NCBI GenBank assembly: GCA_039630575.1
Contig: JBCNUW010000016.1
Span: forward strand, 1-46,289
Direction: 5' to 3'
Length of the DNA stretch: 46,289 nt
From: Candidatus Hydrothermales bacterium
GTDB taxonomy: Bacteria; Hydrothermota; Hydrothermia; Hydrothermales; JAJRUZ01
Position numbers: made by a program. Numbering within the stretch: the stretch's first letter is position 1; each line of letters starts with the position of its first letter. Positions 36,001-42,000 of the stretch are shown here, in pieces.

Positions 36001-39000
36001 GGAAATTTTAATTTATAACTCTACTTTTGATTTGGTCTATTCACTAAGGTATCCCTCAAATTATTCAGTAACAATTTCTGATGAAAAATTGAAGAATCTA
36101 AGGAAAGGAATTTATTTTCTTTATGTACTTTCAGGAAAAAGAAAGATTGGTCCATTTAAGATAATAAAAATAGATTAGCTTAAATTTAAAAGTTATGTTT
36201 TTGTTAATTAAATGAAATACTAAAATGGAGCCAAAAGAAATACTTGAAAAATTAGAAGTTTTAAAAAGGGGACATTTTCTTTTAACAAGTGGCAATCATT
36301 CAGATGTTTATTTTGAAAAATTCAGAATATTATCCCATCCTACAGAACTTAAAAAACTTCTTGAATTTTCTTACGATTTCATAAAAAAAATTGATTTTGA
36401 AATTATTGTAGGACCCTTCACAGGTGGTGCCATAATTGCAGTAATCCTTGCACTTTTGCTTGATAAAAAAGCAATATTTGCTGAAAAAGAAAATGACAAA
36501 TTCGTAATACGAAGGGATTTCTCAATAAAACCTAACTCAACTTGTTTAGTAGTAGATGATGTAATAACAACAGGGGGTTCAATTATAAAGACTATGAAAG
36601 CTTGTGAAAATATTTTAAAAGTTAACGGAATACTTGTTCTTATAGACAGAAGAGAAAAAGAGGAAAATTTCGAAATACCCTTTTATGCAATTTACAAACA
36701 AAAAGTCAAGATATTTCCTCCAGAGGAATGCCCACTTTGCAAGGAAAATATACCTCTTGAGATACCAGGAGGTAAAAGGAAAGAGGTATAAAGAGTTCAA
36801 AAATATTAAATTAAGTGAATAAAGTCATGTATTAAAAAGTAAATTCTCCCAATTAAAAGCGAGATTCTTGCCATTACTGTATAGCCAAAAGCTGCGCCGA
36901 AACCGATCATTATAAAAATAATACCGACCTTTGCAAATGCCTTTAAAGGACCCTTATGCTCTTTTGAAAAGAAGAAATATGATAAAACAGTAAAAGTTCC
37001 TATAAAAATAATTAGGGAATTTAAAAAGTAAACTGTTTGTGAAAATTGAGGTAAGAACGTATCTTTGACTTGATCGAATATCCTTGCTTTAAAAGTTGGG
37101 TAAAGGGAAAGACCTGAGCCTATTCCCATCAGAAAGGCAATTGGGTATCTTATGAGCCAAGAATATCTTGGAAATAGAAGAGAAAAAAACAAAAGACCAA
37201 AAGAAAGGGGAACAAGATACATAATAAATGAAAAAAAAGCTGAAACAGTAGAGATATTCACAAAAGCTTCTGGCCATATTATTTTATAATAAAAAATTGA
37301 AAATTTCTCAGAGAGGGGTTTTACAATAAATCTTAAAATAGCATTATGCCAGTAAATAGAAGCGTAATAACCAGCCGAAACTCCCACAAAGAGGTGTTCA
37401 GCAAATTTATAAACTGGATTATCTTTAAATAAAAAAGAAAAAATTGCAAGTGTTAAAAAGGCACTTATCCATACCCAGGGATCTAAACTCATTTTCTCCT
37501 CCTTCTTTTTAAAAAATAGGAAATATTACCCAATATAACAAGTAAAACCATGACAAAATTTGCAAGAGAGATTGAGTTCATACCTTTTGTTGCAAGGTTA
37601 TGTGCAGCTAATAACTTTTCATATTCAGCTGCTCCTCTCATTCCACCGATTAAACCTATGAACTGTCTACTTCTATAGTATGGATAAAGTTGGGCAGCCA
37701 TTACAGCGGTAACTCCTGCAGCAACATTAGCATTGTATCTCCCGTTAGCATAAACCATCCATGATTCAGGAATTGCCGCACCAGATATTGTTATAATAAG
37801 TTTTATATCCTCATAATTTTTTACACCCTTGAAGGCTTCAATTTCATCAAAGGGAACCCCAAAATAATCAGATTTAAAAACATTTTTTATATCCTCGCCA
37901 ATCCCCAAAATAGTTGCAGCTATGGAAGGAAAGTAACCAACAAACACAATATCCTTCCTCTCAACTAAATTAAATTCTTTTAATATTTTGTTGTAAACAT
38001 CAAGAGCAAAGCCTGCACCTGCTGGGTAGAGTGTCATTATATAAATCCTTAACTTCTTCCTTGCCAAATGTTTAGCCAAAACTAAGGACATGGGATAGCA
38101 CTCTGGTAAAACATCAGGAGAATAATCAAAGGATAAAATAACAGGTGTACCTTCAGGTAAACTTTCTATAAAATCATAAACATCCTTTACTGGCTTTAAT
38201 ACTTTAAGAGGTAATAAGAATTTAAAAAGTAGTGGTATGAAAACAGCAAGACCTATAAGAATAAAAATTACAAAACGTGGTATATTTAAGAGCCTATCTA
38301 TAAGACTCATTCAAGCCAACTCCTTTCAATTCCAAGCATAATCTTTAAGGAAGTAGCAAGAATTCCAAGAGCTATTCCGAGAGTAATTCCTCTCTGAGCA
38401 GCAAGATTAGGAACATCTAAAATCCATTGAGCTAAAGAGGGTAGCTTATCTGAGATTATGTCTCCAAAAGATGTAAAACCTATCATTAAAATGAAGGCGG
38501 AAAGTAAAAGAAGTGTGCTTTCTAAATTTCTAGCTCTGAAGGCACGATAAGAGGCAGAAGCCATGTAAAAAGCAAGTAAGGAAAAGGTTGTAGCATTTAA
38601 GGGCACCATCACATATTCATAAATTTTATCAAAGGTAGATCCTTTACCTATTCCAAAGAAAACACCAAGGATTATCATTCCATAGAGTGAAACCAGAGTA
38701 ACAAATGAATAAAAGACATTCTTACCTCTTTTTAAGTTATGAAAATGCCTTCTTGTAAGAGAGATAACAGCCATAATAATTGCCATCCCTTGAACACCTT
38801 GAAACCATTCGAGAAGTAAAGTGTATACTGATTTAGAAAGTGGACCCACAATAAAGTATTGTAGAAATCCTATAGTTCCGATGAAAAACACAATAAATAT
38901 TGGAATTTCTTTTTTCATTTGGGAAATAAAAATTCTAAAAGATTTTCTCTTCCTATAAAACTCAGGAATCCGCCAATAAGAATAAGAAAACCGATTAAAA

Positions 39001-42000
39001 ATTTCATTGCATCTTGAGATCTTATAGTTGAAACAAGAATGGGTTCACCAGAAAGATAGGCACTTGCAGCGTAGAATTCCTCTCCTATTAAGGTGTAATC
39101 ACAGGCAGTTACAAAAAATGGTAGCTGTGTAATTGCGTCTGTCCCAGCTATTTGAATTGCGCCCGTTGAAGCACCAGTTTCTGCGAGTAAAAGTGATTCA
39201 GCCCAGAACATACCCATAAAAAAGTTGGTACTTGTTTTTTCTCTAACCATCAATCCGCACACTGCAGCAGCATAACCAAATTGGGAATCAGTGATGTAAA
39301 AAATTGAGTCTTCTTTAAAGAGATCTGGCCTTCCTATTGAAGCATAGGCTTGTTTAACAACCTCTTTAGCTACTGTGTAAACAACAGGATTTCTATTCGG
39401 AACTATAATATCAGTTTCATACTCACCTGATTTTTTTGAAACTCTTGACAAAATGTTCAAAGAAGCTATGGTCGCTACATCATCAATTGTGGAAAGTCCT
39501 GGTACATATAAAATAGGTCTACCCATCTCAGTAGCCCTACCTATAGCCTCATCAACCGCTTCAATGCCTGGTATTTTCCTTAAAAAAAGTTTTTCTCCTT
39601 TTCTTGCCCTTGAAATATAATAAAGAAGAAAAAAAACATAGATTAAAACTGAGAAGAAAACTGGTAACTTTGCAAAATCAATTCCCATATTAGTATACCT
39701 TTTTTATTTCAACTTTATCTTTAATTATTTCAAATATTTTTCTTTTATAAGCTAAAGTTATTTTAAATTTCAAATTCTTTTCAAATTTTTCTACATTTAT
39801 TGGAGAGAGAGGGATTTTAAAAATATATACATTTTCTTTGTTTTTAGTAAAGGGCACTTTTAGTTCAAAATCGTCAAAAAGGATTTTAATTTCTTTTAAC
39901 TGAGGATCTTTCTGAAAACTACCTTTAATTTCTAAAATTCCCTTTATATTTCGAGGGTGCTGTATAGGTGAAGGCATCAAATCTAAAAAAATAACTAAAT
40001 TAATATCAAAATCTGATGGAAGATTAACAGAGTTTATACAAAATTTTAGTAAGAAGAGGTATAATAAAAAATATTTATTTACCAAAATTTTATGTTTCTT
40101 TTTCTTTTCTTGCTTGCTCAATTATCTTTTGAGCAAGTTCCTTTGGAACCTCATCGTAGTGACTAAACTTTGCAAAATAAACAGCCTTTCCTTTAGCAAT
40201 AGATCTCAAAGAACTTGAGTACCCATAAAGCTCTGCAAGTGGAACATAAGCTTTGATTTTTTGTTTTTTCTTTCCTATAGGTTCCATGCCAAGAATTCTA
40301 CCCCTCCTTGAATTGAGATCACTCATAACATCACCCATAATTTCTTCAGGAACAATCACTTCAACTTCATAGATTGGTTCAAGTAAATAAGAATCAGCAT
40401 TCATTTGAGCATCTCTAAATGCCATAGATCCTGCTATTTCAAAGGCAATATTTGAAGAATCAACTGGGTGATACTTTCCATCATAAAGTTCAACTCTTAC
40501 ATCGATAACAGGGAAACCAGCAAGAACACCACTTTGCATTGCTTTTTTAATTCCTGTTTCTACTGATGGTATAAAGTTTGATGGTATTGCGCCGCCGAAT
40601 ATGGAATTTATGAACTCATATTCCTTACCTCTCGGAAGAGGCTCAATTCTTATGTTACATATACCATACTGACCTCTCCCTCCTGATTGCTTTACATACT
40701 TTCCCATAGCCTCAGCTTTTTTCCTTATTGTTTCTCTATAGGGAATTTTAGGTTTTGTTTGAGTGACCTCAACACCGTATCTTCTTTTCATTTTTGAAAC
40801 AATGACATTAAGATGAATCTCCCCAAGACCTTCTATAATTGTCTGTTTTAGCTCAGGGTTATAATGAAAAGAGAAAGTTGAGTCTTCAGCAGCAAGTTTT
40901 TTTAAAGCCTCAGAAACCTTTTCTTCATCTTGCTTAGTTTTTGGAATTACAGCAACCTGAACACTTCTCCATGGAAAGTCTATTTCAGGGTAAATAACAA
41001 CATCATCTATTGAACAAAGTGTATCATTTGTATGGGTATCTTTAAGTTTTACTATAGCACCAATCTCTCCTGTTTTTAACTCATTAATCTCTTTTCTTTC
41101 TTTACCAAGTACATGATAAAGGGATGTTATTTTTTCTCTTATTTCTCTTTTAGGGTTTAAAAGTTCTGTTCCTGTTTTAATAGATCCTCTTAAAACCCTT
41201 ATATAATTTATCTCTCCGAGATGAGGGTCACTCATGGTTTTAAAAACAAATCCAACAGAACTTCCATCTTCAGCTGGACTTATTTCTACTTCTTTTCCAT
41301 CTTTAGTTCTCCCTTTTCTTGGAATTAATTCGTTATATGAGGGAAAAAATTCAGTTACAAATTCGATAAATTCATTAATTCCTTTATCATCTAAGGAATC
41401 ACCAAAAAATACAGGTACAATGAGGCCTTCCTTTATGCCTTTCTTTATTGCATATTTAATCTCGGACGGAGAAATTTCACCCTTTTCAAGATATTTTTCA
41501 ACAAGATTTTCATCAAGCTCAACTATTGACTCCATAGTCTCTTCCTTTTCTTTTGTCCATCCCTCTGGAGCTTCTTCAAAAATTGTTTTAACTCCCATAA
41601 AGGATTCACCTTCTCCAATTGGAAAAGTTAGAAGAACAAATTTCTTTTCGAATGTATTTCTCAAAACTTTTAGGACTTCCTTTATATTAACATTTTCCGA
41701 TTTCATTTTTGTTATAAAGACTGCTGCTGGAATACTTCTCTCAAAGACCTTTTCACCGTAGATTTCAGTTCCCACTTCTACACCACCTGAAGCACTTATC
41801 ACAAGACATACAATATCAGTTATGTGAATACCCGAGAGAAACTCTCCTTGAAAATCGATAAAACCAGGGCAATCAAGCAAAAAAATCTTCTCTCCCTTAT
41901 TTTCAAAATGAGCTATTCCTAAATTTATAGTAATTTTTCTTTCCTGTTCTTCTGGGTCATAGTCTAATATACTTGTACCTTCATCAGTCCTTCCCAATCT

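Follow-up and report, generated by a model that had tools for sequence, protein, structure and literature searches.

A DUF6754 membrane operon and a separately encoded GlmL-like ATPase module: a candidate ATP-driven importer, possibly of oligopeptides

The window, by which we mean the whole stretch of 46,289 nucleotides of a Candidatus Hydrothermales bacterium that was analysed, carries on its minus strand four genes, A to D, which very probably form one ATPase-linked system of seven genes together with L (a GlmL-like ASKHA ATPase), its partner K and the small protein H. Our best reading is that this system represents a new class of ATP-driven importer, perhaps for oligopeptides (probability roughly 0.45). 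That A–D are the membrane part of an undescribed ATP-driven importer we think probable on balance; oligopeptides as its main substrate are proposed tentatively. The genome-wide survey's note had taken the four genes for the whole machine, which they are not, as L, K and H complete the system.

The membrane operon

Each neighbouring pair of the ORFs A–D overlaps by 4 nt, and a fifth ORF, U, lies directly upstream of A:

39690-40121, minus strand: U, predicted small lipoprotein (hydrophobic N-terminus, conserved Cys, beta-rich body)
38915-39688, minus strand: A, ORF of 257 aa, DUF6754 protein; transmembrane helix (TM), six-stranded Rossmann-like domain (predicted cytoplasmic), TM
38307-38918, minus strand: B, ORF of 203 aa; six TM, predicted N-in/C-in from family hydropathy and K/R counts
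37489-38310, minus strand: C, ORF of 273 aa; TM, six-stranded Rossmann-like domain (predicted extracytoplasmic), TM
36806-37492, minus strand: D, ORF of 228 aa; six TM, predicted N-out/C-out; fused to C in some lineages

The feature end given earlier, 40085, falls within U, which had not been named. U matches no Pfam or NCBIfam family above cut-off, and a U-like ORF occupies the same position at L032, L281, L292 and L293, and weakly at L061 (19% identity). U is not a detached N-terminus of A, since L281 and L061 carry U plus a full-length A; it appears to be a lineage-restricted accessory of uncertain membership in the system.

The two paralogous operons that had been described are confirmed, the second lying at 40414-43808 of contig C1 (G000), with identities to the window's copy (36806-39688) of 57, 32, 39 and 42% for A, B, C and D. 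The order A-B-C-D is found in 250 operons, 237 of them distinct, over which the median identity to the window's copy is 54% for A, the most conserved subunit, 43% for B, 36% for C, the least conserved, and 44% for D. Exceptions are few (2 of 80 regions have another pattern; L287 reads B-C-D-A). A stands without B–D in 12 of 73 loci, one of which ends 250 nt past A, and 10 of 83 long D homologues are C-D fusions. Genomes carry 1-5 copies of the membrane operon, and up to 10, with diverged paralogues; the C family alone comprises 5,344 clusters at 50% identity. DUF6754 is present in 107 of 121 genomes of the phylum (89 of the 96 that are at least 90% complete), as its reported wide occurrence there had implied. 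Flanking genes give no consistent clue to a substrate, a promoter scan returned 27 promoter-like sites against 27.3 expected, and the terminator scan and the search for plasmid matches returned none.

A belongs fully to DUF6754 (PF20539; 377 bits over residues 5-250, gathering cut-off 27), a family that is a label without a function; B, C and D lack a Pfam family, as had been stated, and also fall below all NCBIfam cut-offs. The poor model reported earlier for A (pLDDT 59.9) is superseded by an AF2 model from a 70-row alignment (pLDDT 94.5, pTM 0.88), and the natural C-D fusion P0057 gave a model of pLDDT 90.3 and pTM 0.89. According to these models, A and C apparently share one TM-Rossmann-TM fold, with the same order of elements, on opposite faces of the membrane: 16 of 50 common fold matches are in register, and the charge patterns are opposite. 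Profile comparison of A with C found no homology above shuffles, the best alignment, which falls in the register predicted by the models, scoring 15.7 against 17.6. The best fold matches of the soluble domains (A: Z 9.9, rmsd 3.0, 138 aligned; C: Z 10.1, rmsd 3.8, 140 aligned) are tied among many folds, including RCK/KTN (Z 7.9-9.4), transhydrogenase domain III, Sir2/DHS-like, SIS and MT0777, at identities of 4-18%. A SIS domain for A, considered from a motif, was dropped, as the SIS rows of the fold search are tied with others. Foldseek returned nothing at E<=0.001 for the A model or the C-D fusion model, and structure comparison of C with the Atlas returned unnamed neighbours only. Two features set the window's copies apart from their relatives: A lacks an N-terminal exported domain that is present in 187 of 195 A homologues, and position 251 in the second TM of C is Asn, whereas 97% of relatives have His.

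Across 238 rows, the invariant polar residues of B are S121, R125, R128, R176, E198 and R199, so that of the invariant His, Arg and Glu ascribed to it earlier, Arg and Glu are borne out and His is not (H58 65%, H25 71%). Those of D are N25, E32, Q141, T205, R209, S211 and R216, and its last helix is Gly-rich. No alignment column of B, C or D has Cys in 50% of the 238 rows, conserved His are few in all three, and membrane carboxylates are few. The outer loops of A, B and D hold variable FN3-like, propeller and helical inserts, with large insertions near residue 90 in relatives of B. Profile-profile comparison found neither B-D homology nor internal repeats clearly above reversed or block-shuffled controls, a repeat within D being borderline (22.6 against a shuffle maximum of 21.5). 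Sequence searches of the PDB with B and with D gave no match, including none to ECF S or T components; in the Atlas, B had no named hit, and a 196-aa unnamed protein reached TM 0.47. D was searched by fold inside the C-D fusion model only, where the C domain fills the match list. In P0035, C is joined straight to D with no additional helix, which would conflict with the orientation predicted for D if P0035 is not a read-through.

The view that A–D make up a single hetero-oligomeric machine of the inner membrane, with soluble domains on either side, draws support from the fixed gene order, the C-D fusions, the model of the fusion and the distribution of charges across the families; this part of the survey's proposal stands, and its extension to four genes as the complete machine does not. 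Covariation over 238 paired operons gave top inter-chain scores that were no higher than those with paralogues rotated inside a locus, and mostly implausible intra-chain hits.

The ATPase module and its link to A–D

L, K and H lie on contig C67 in this genome and are co-operonic with A–D in others. L matches PF13941 with 430 bits, and the motifs that we take to be the phosphate-1, phosphate-2 and adenosine motifs of ASKHA proteins are conserved in 57 aligned L proteins; it is further extended at its C-terminus by about 120 aa and has a weak, below-cut-off match to Hydantoinase_A, and a GntR-L fusion exists. K carries a KOW domain and matches RnfC_N (18.4 against 25.6 bits), Biotin_lipoyl and NQRA_N weakly, all below cut-off; its family comprises at least 8,000 clusters at 90% identity. 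Neither K nor H matches a Pfam or NCBIfam family above cut-off, and sequence searches of the PDB gave nothing for L and, for K, a weak KOW match and one chance hit.

The module and the membrane operon are distributed together. Among the 121 phylum genomes, 105 have both DUF6754 and PF13941 and 13 have neither, leaving one with L only (77% complete) and two with A only. In another class, A occurs in 101 of 101 genomes and K in 99, and in a small phylum co-occurrence is complete (13/13). Losses are joint as well: in genus g21, K and C are also absent (5/5 tested), and G138 lacks A, K and L, whereas the only other genome of its phylum, G122, carries A as well as K, next to which L is encoded. Outside the phylum of the present genome, A comes after K at a distance of at most one ORF in 11 of 20 loci centred on K. 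In five loci L and K are fused, although neither these fusions nor two more L-K pairs adjoin A–D, all of them being second copies. Because L and K are co-operonic and co-distributed with A, and are fused to each other in five loci, we regard the seven genes as the unit; the link to two further genes, thought weak by the genome-wide survey's note, is thus strong. The module is usually single and the membrane part is not: L has a single match in 88 of 106 genomes, against 1-5 for A, and K in 91 of 99, against 2-10 for A.

One genome, G060 (94% complete), carries four A but lacks both L and K. This could hint that A–D are a self-contained secondary carrier or channel of two inverted pairs, which L-K-H regulate or with which they merely share a history. 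It would fit that A and C have the same fold on what appear to be opposite faces, that the tied fold matches include RCK/KTN gating domains and that the operon often lies far from L-K, as here; however, the loss of A together with L and K from both g21 and G138, the near-complete co-occurrence in three groups and the adjacency of K and A across phyla make such a carrier quite improbable. It is very improbable that the system is a transmembrane sensor in which C would sense an outside ligand and A would relay the signal inside with L-K. The TM-domain-TM layout of C, the KOW domain of K and the GntR-L fusion are compatible with signalling, yet the conserved polar core of twelve helices exceeds its needs, and the usual gene set has no output domain.

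We consider it unlikely that the system is an energy-converting or chemistry-coupled enzyme, in which L would phosphorylate a small molecule in the manner of hydantoinases or oxoprolinases, or ATP would be coupled to ion movement with K resembling RnfC/NqrA and B and D resembling RnfA/E. The below-cut-off matches of L and K, the predicted opposite orientation of the six-helix proteins, the unusual conservation of A and the small ligand hinted at by the GntR-L fusion speak for it. Against it stand the lack of conserved Cys in B, C and D, the few membrane carboxylates, the presence of RnfD with and without the system (5/5) and the many diverged membrane paralogues per ATPase, which suit specificity modules better than a pump. 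Actin-fold ATPases with a membrane platform are an established design (PilM, FtsA), and this, together with the variable inserts in the outer loops, could suggest a machine for export or envelope assembly, with L-K in the role of PilM or FtsA and with outer domains that tether the machine or pass cargo. This seems rather unlikely, given that genes for secretins, pilins or cargo are not found recurrently next to the operons and that a genus of 15 genomes dispenses with the whole system.

The genes gcvPB lie directly before H in 15 of the 24 L loci of this phylum, and a lipoate ligase follows D in eight loci, again in this phylum only. A glycine-cleavage function was rejected, as none of 20 loci from outside the phylum shows a gcv link and GcvP is retained in g21 (4/5). 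We regard these neighbours as lineage synteny, since they are confined to this phylum and GcvP is kept in g21.

Opp distribution and the substrate

Opp-type ABC ATPases (oligo_HPY above cut-off) occur in 12 of the 14 genomes without DUF6754 versus 4 of the 107 with it, and in 3 of 101 genomes of the class that carries about five operons per genome. Four such hits are in G060, where A is present and L and K are absent; G138 has four strong hits and G122 two weak ones. Family-5 binding-protein hits number 3-6 in g21, some in tandem beside oppC-D-F, and 2-3 in five sister genera. This genome has no OppC homologue, and its SBP_bac_5-TonB_C (OppA-TonB) protein is an orphan with no adjoining permease. 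Because the anticorrelation reflects two or three lineage events (g21, G138 and perhaps G060), a 2x2 P value for it would be too strong. Moreover, the system and Opp ATPases occur together in G121, G125, G070, G082, G108 and 5/5 further genomes tested, G078 and G030 have no family-5 binding protein though the system is present, and these lineages may lack Opp simply as part of their background.

Nevertheless, the Opp pattern is left unexplained both by an energy-converting enzyme and by an export machine. The survey had offered a transporter or an ion-coupled converter; the former is now favoured, since the Opp anticorrelation points to uptake and B, C and D offer no conserved Cys that could form redox centres. 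An importer of the same architecture for another solute, be it a metal ion, a cofactor or single amino acids, is unlikely. A metal ABC permease is present in g21 (3/3) and absent from two sisters (0/2), the B12 enzymes served by the characterised relatives of L (PMC4785665) could point to a cofactor, and gcvPB so often precedes H. However, this genome keeps a znuA/znuB-like pair in addition to the system and lacks the Opp permease and glutamate mutase, few His and no Cys are conserved in B, C and D, and the gcv link fails outside the phylum and in g21. The metal permease, and likewise sugar-binding proteins, which are found in 0/3 of g21 and in 2/2 of its sisters, show that g21 departs from its sisters in transporters besides Opp, which counts against the peptide reading.

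Known systems and a possible mechanism

The known proteins closest to L are GlmL/MutL (PF13941) and Or-4, accessories of B12 mutases, and the diol and glycerol dehydratase reactivases; L has the PF13941 match and the ASKHA motifs. It reaches none of the NCBIfam cut-offs (GlmL/MutL, NF040745, 232.8 against 475; Or-4, NF040744, 219.3 against 600; TIGR01319, 179.5 against 204), whereas a true GlmL between glmS and glmE (L159) scores 582 and passes two of the three. L differs from GlmL in its extension and in its partners, K, H and membrane proteins, and tblastn at E<=0.01 found neither GlmE nor GlmS in this 95%-complete genome. Reactivases, described in PMC4785665 as ATP-dependent chaperones with Hsp70 features, offer a model for the action of L.

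Opp/Dpp importers have the same proposed job, an anticorrelated distribution and tandem specificity genes, yet Pfam finds no ABC ATPase, BPD_transp_1 permease or family-5 binding protein among A–D, H, K and L (positive control, L303). In ECF transporters of group II, one energising module is common to several membrane modules encoded elsewhere. The present system matches this sharing at the level of genomic logic, although its ATPase is of the ASKHA fold with no ABC_tran match, and EcfA/A' are absent. Rnf and Nqr have conserved membrane Cys in an inverted pair. The likeness to them would lie in a putative barrel-sandwich hybrid in K (weak RnfC_N, NQRA_N) and the predicted inverted pair of six-helix proteins; in contrast, our system lacks the Cys and has an ATPase instead of flavoproteins, and Rnf is encoded independently.

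If the system is an importer, the pathway might be formed by B and D, oppositely oriented and with conserved Arg, Asn, Gln, Ser and Thr, capped outside by the Rossmann-like domain of C and inside by the highly conserved one of A, which we infer to be the dock for L-K. Substrate or a binding protein would be captured by C and the variable outer domains of A, B and D, here perhaps with the orphan OppA-TonB protein. The cleft of L would open and close with ATP binding and hydrolysis, as in the chaperone-like reactivases, and so drive alternating access through A, and one motor could serve several membrane paralogues of differing specificity, following the ECF group II logic with unrelated parts. 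In its fullest form, put forward a shade more tentatively still, the proposal is a new class of primary-active transporter with an actin/Hsp70-fold ATPase, a pseudo-symmetric four-subunit translocon and a shared motor, which would be the main route of oligopeptide uptake, displaceable by Opp, in many uncultured protein-degrading bacteria.

No ASKHA-fold ATPase is known to us to power a solute transporter, and a literature search found none that does. No paper on DUF6754, PF13941, TIGR01319 or the seven-gene system was found among titles and the beginnings of abstracts, whereas supplements may list the genes. In databases, L is annotated as a helper of glutamate mutase and the other proteins as hypothetical, although nearly all genomes of this phylum carry the system, as do those of another class, there at about five copies per genome. 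Should peptide import be true, it would account for protein feeding in lineages that have no Opp, whose main uptake route would then be missing from metabolic models built on their genomes. The natural C-D and L-K fusions should ease reconstitution, and cultured carriers exist, with Calycomorphotria hydatis and Stratiformator vulcanicus among the named sources.

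Gene order and copies of the membrane operon

The genome-wide survey's note had described four genes in the set order A-B-C-D, a paralogous operon on contig C1, and no Pfam family for B, C or D.

39688-38915, minus strand: A, DUF6754 protein
38918-38307, minus strand: B, no Pfam or NCBIfam family over cut-off
38310-37489, minus strand: C, no Pfam or NCBIfam family over cut-off
37492-36806, minus strand: D, no Pfam or NCBIfam family over cut-off
39690-40121: U, lipoprotein-like gene
C1 40414-43808: second A-D operon

These points hold up. B, C and D fall below every Pfam and NCBIfam cut-off, the second operon was found on C1, and the loci fetched for gene order contain 250 A-B-C-D operons, of which 237 are distinct; tandem runs of two or three are frequent. 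Exceptions are few: 2 of 80 fetched regions deviate, and a separate locus reads B-C-D-A. In the window each gene overlaps the next by four bases. DUF6754 is present in 107 of the 121 genomes of the phylum, and A stands alone, without B-D, in 12 of 73 loci. An invariant His that had been claimed for B is contradicted by 238 aligned rows. A quick tree built from 98 C proteins places the two operon copies of the source genome in different clades, and one locus (L061) carries one copy of each clade in tandem, so the two copies are old paralogues.

Flanking genes differ between lineages. In five related loci a counterpart of U occupies the corresponding position. U is overlapped by an EF-G paralogue on the same strand (40090-42144), and a similar 666-aa gene holds the equivalent position in loci L292 and L293; a 160-aa ORF without a Pfam match (42194-42676) is divergent from this EF-G-U-A-B-C-D run.

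The L, K and H genes

Neighbour clustering of 73 related loci showed that in several phyla A is immediately preceded by two further genes, L and K, usually with the small gene H ahead of them. L is a 600-aa PF13941 (GlmL/MutL) protein, and K, of 375 aa, combines barrel-sandwich hybrid repeats with a KOW tail. The source genome encodes them on contig C67:

C67 4941-5216: H
C67 5287-7110: L
C67 11557-12687: K

A and L occur together in 105 of the 121 phylum genomes; L alone is found in one (77% complete) and A alone in two, G023 with K and G060 (94% complete) without it. The 13 genomes with neither are of genus g21, where K and C are also absent (5 of 5 tested). In the class of genome G123, all 101 genomes have A, with 486 matches in total, and 99 have K, as a single copy in 91; the two without K carry L. 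A and K are present in 13 of 13 genomes of a small phylum, and in a phylum of two genomes the system is present in G122 while A, K and L are all absent from G138. Outside the source phylum, A lies within one ORF downstream of K at 11 of 20 K-centred loci. L-K fusions are encoded at five loci, as second copies away from A-D. It is thus very probable that A-D, H, L and K constitute one seven-gene system.

ASKHA motifs are kept in L (57 aligned proteins). L carries a C-terminal extension missing from true GlmL and scores below the GlmL and Or-4 cut-offs, which a true GlmL encoded between glmS and glmE passes or comes close to; no glutamate mutase was found in the source genome. L resembles GlmL without being one.

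Several variants and neighbours were observed alongside. Diverged second L-K copies occur in unrelated neighbourhoods remote from A-D (L154-L158, L160, L161), five of them fused into one 870-1000-aa protein. Locus L159 (G022:C3) is a genuine glutamate mutase operon, glmS-glmL-glmE, and its genome has an orphan-type L as well. At L162:10101-12218 (same as L058) an N-terminal GntR helix-turn-helix is fused to L, and L frames of 700-740 aa occur in several other genomes. The gene gcvPB lies directly ahead of H-L in 15 of the phylum's 24 loci, L105:2522-4217 among them, and a lipoate ligase gene follows D in eight loci. Between L and K of the source genome (L105:6132-10476) lie a TldD/PmbA gene, a dihydroorotase-like gene and riboflavin genes, the last two labels being read from sequence. 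A 140-150-aa membrane protein, encoded directly ahead of H at six loci outside the phylum (L079, L188, L190, L192, L200, L204) and with a weak homologue on C2 of the source genome, is a possible eighth component.

Predicted folds and membrane orientation

The model of A (pLDDT 94.5) comprises a TM, a helix, a six-stranded alpha/beta domain and a TM. Among 83 long homologues of D, 10 are C-D fusions, and in seven of these an additional helix links the two parts. One fusion, P0057, gave a model of high overall confidence (pLDDT 90.3, pTM 0.89), in which the C part has the same elements as A in the same order. A and C have 16 of their 50 best fold matches in common, with identical target ranges (for example 5but 123-270 and 6i8v 3-122 in both) and best Z of 9.9 and 10.1, respectively; Foldseek on the A and C-D fusion models gave no match at E<=0.001. 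As modelled, the soluble domain of both is generic Rossmann-like.

Family-wide K/R counts (4.5 after TM1 of A), together with the signal-like stretch that opens 174 of 187 N-terminal extensions of A, would put the A domain inside. The counts would also put B N-in, D N-out and the termini of C inside, and hence the C domain outside. Inserts in relatives support this orientation: the B loop around residue 90 can contain FN3-like domains or a degenerate copy of the C domain, and the D loop after Q141 large domains. P0035, in which C is joined straight to D, counts against it. Because their predicted folds match and their putative faces are opposite, the A and C subunits resemble an inverted pair, and the same may hold for B and D; profile comparisons among the subunits detected no homology above controls. 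Conservation among polar residues falls on Arg, Asn, Gln, Ser and Thr and on few carboxylates, and there is no conserved Cys in B, C or D. The near-invariant His251 in the second helix of C (4 substitutions and 2 gaps in 238 rows) is replaced by Asn in the window copy, which fits altered specificity.

The B proteins P0084 and P0085 hold an inserted degenerate C domain in an outer loop. Diverged A paralogues directly ahead of a normal A (L285:4209-5138, L286:8097-8987) carry an additional helix at the N-terminus instead of the exported domain.

Mechanism, substrate and relation to known systems

The analysis shows which genes go together and are co-distributed, which are fused, how unequal their copy numbers are, the ATPase motifs and the predicted folds. 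As a reading we favor an ATP-driven importer (probability roughly 0.6). B and D would form the pathway, C and variable outer domains would capture the substrate or a binding protein, and A would dock L-K. ATP-driven cleft movement in L might power alternating access, by analogy with the reactivases, described as chaperone-like in PMC4785665, and one motor could be common to several membrane paralogues of differing specificity. An export or assembly platform is improbable, a self-contained carrier decidedly so, and a sensor would be very surprising. An energy-converting or chemistry-coupled enzyme is unlikely too; hydantoinase-type ASKHA enzymes are ATP-dependent according to PMC5214803, but RnfD occurs both with and without the system (5/5), so the system is no stand-in for Rnf.

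The substrate clue comes from oligo_HPY, the Opp/Dpp ATPase domain, which scores over its threshold in 12 of the 14 genomes that lack DUF6754 (the remaining two are 73% and 77% complete) versus 4 of 107 with it, a pattern that amounts to two or three lineage events rather than 121 independent genomes. One of those four, G060, is without L and K. Matches to family-5 binding proteins number 3-6 per genome in the 15 genomes of g21, several of them lying in tandem, against two in five sister genera (one with three, including a fragment). Locus L303 is oppC-oppD-oppF, and no OppC homologue was found in the source genome. The domain exceeds its cut-off in 3 of 101 genomes of a class with about five operons, and in the two-genome phylum G138, without the system, has four strong matches and G122, with it, two weak ones. 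However, Opp ATPases occur alongside the system in G121, G125 and 5/5 further genomes, and G078 and G030 have the system and no family-5 protein. Peptides are the leading, if tentative, choice of substrate, at somewhat under even odds. Passages of PMC7509429 count WOR-3 among fermenters and credit an Ignavibacteriae genome with secreted proteases, a background that fits peptide import without testing it. Import of another solute is about as unlikely as the enzyme; a metal ABC permease is found in g21 (3/3) and not in its sisters (0/2). Sugar-binding proteins show the reverse (0/3 versus 2/2), and both contrasts weigh against the peptide reading. The source genome has a znuA/znuB-like pair on C23.

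G000:C1:126185-128302: SBP_bac_5-TonB_C protein, 705 aa, no permease nearby

This protein of the source genome could hand peptides from outer-membrane receptors to an inner-membrane importer.

In working logic the system is like ECF and Opp importers, but it lacks their defining features where these are testable; the same is true of Rnf/Nqr, which it resembles in two weak traits. A search of the open-access literature, exclusive of subscription journals and supplements, yielded no paper on the system. To the earlier picture this analysis adds the pattern of Opp displacement and the controls for it, an orphan protein of OppA-TonB type, the match between A and C in fold, and the gene U.

Open frames near the length of the 705-aa protein occur in family f17, as do lengths similar to that of a 1036-aa protein (G000:C13:23419-26529) in which a family-5 binding domain at the C-terminus follows a long N-terminal part of no known kind.
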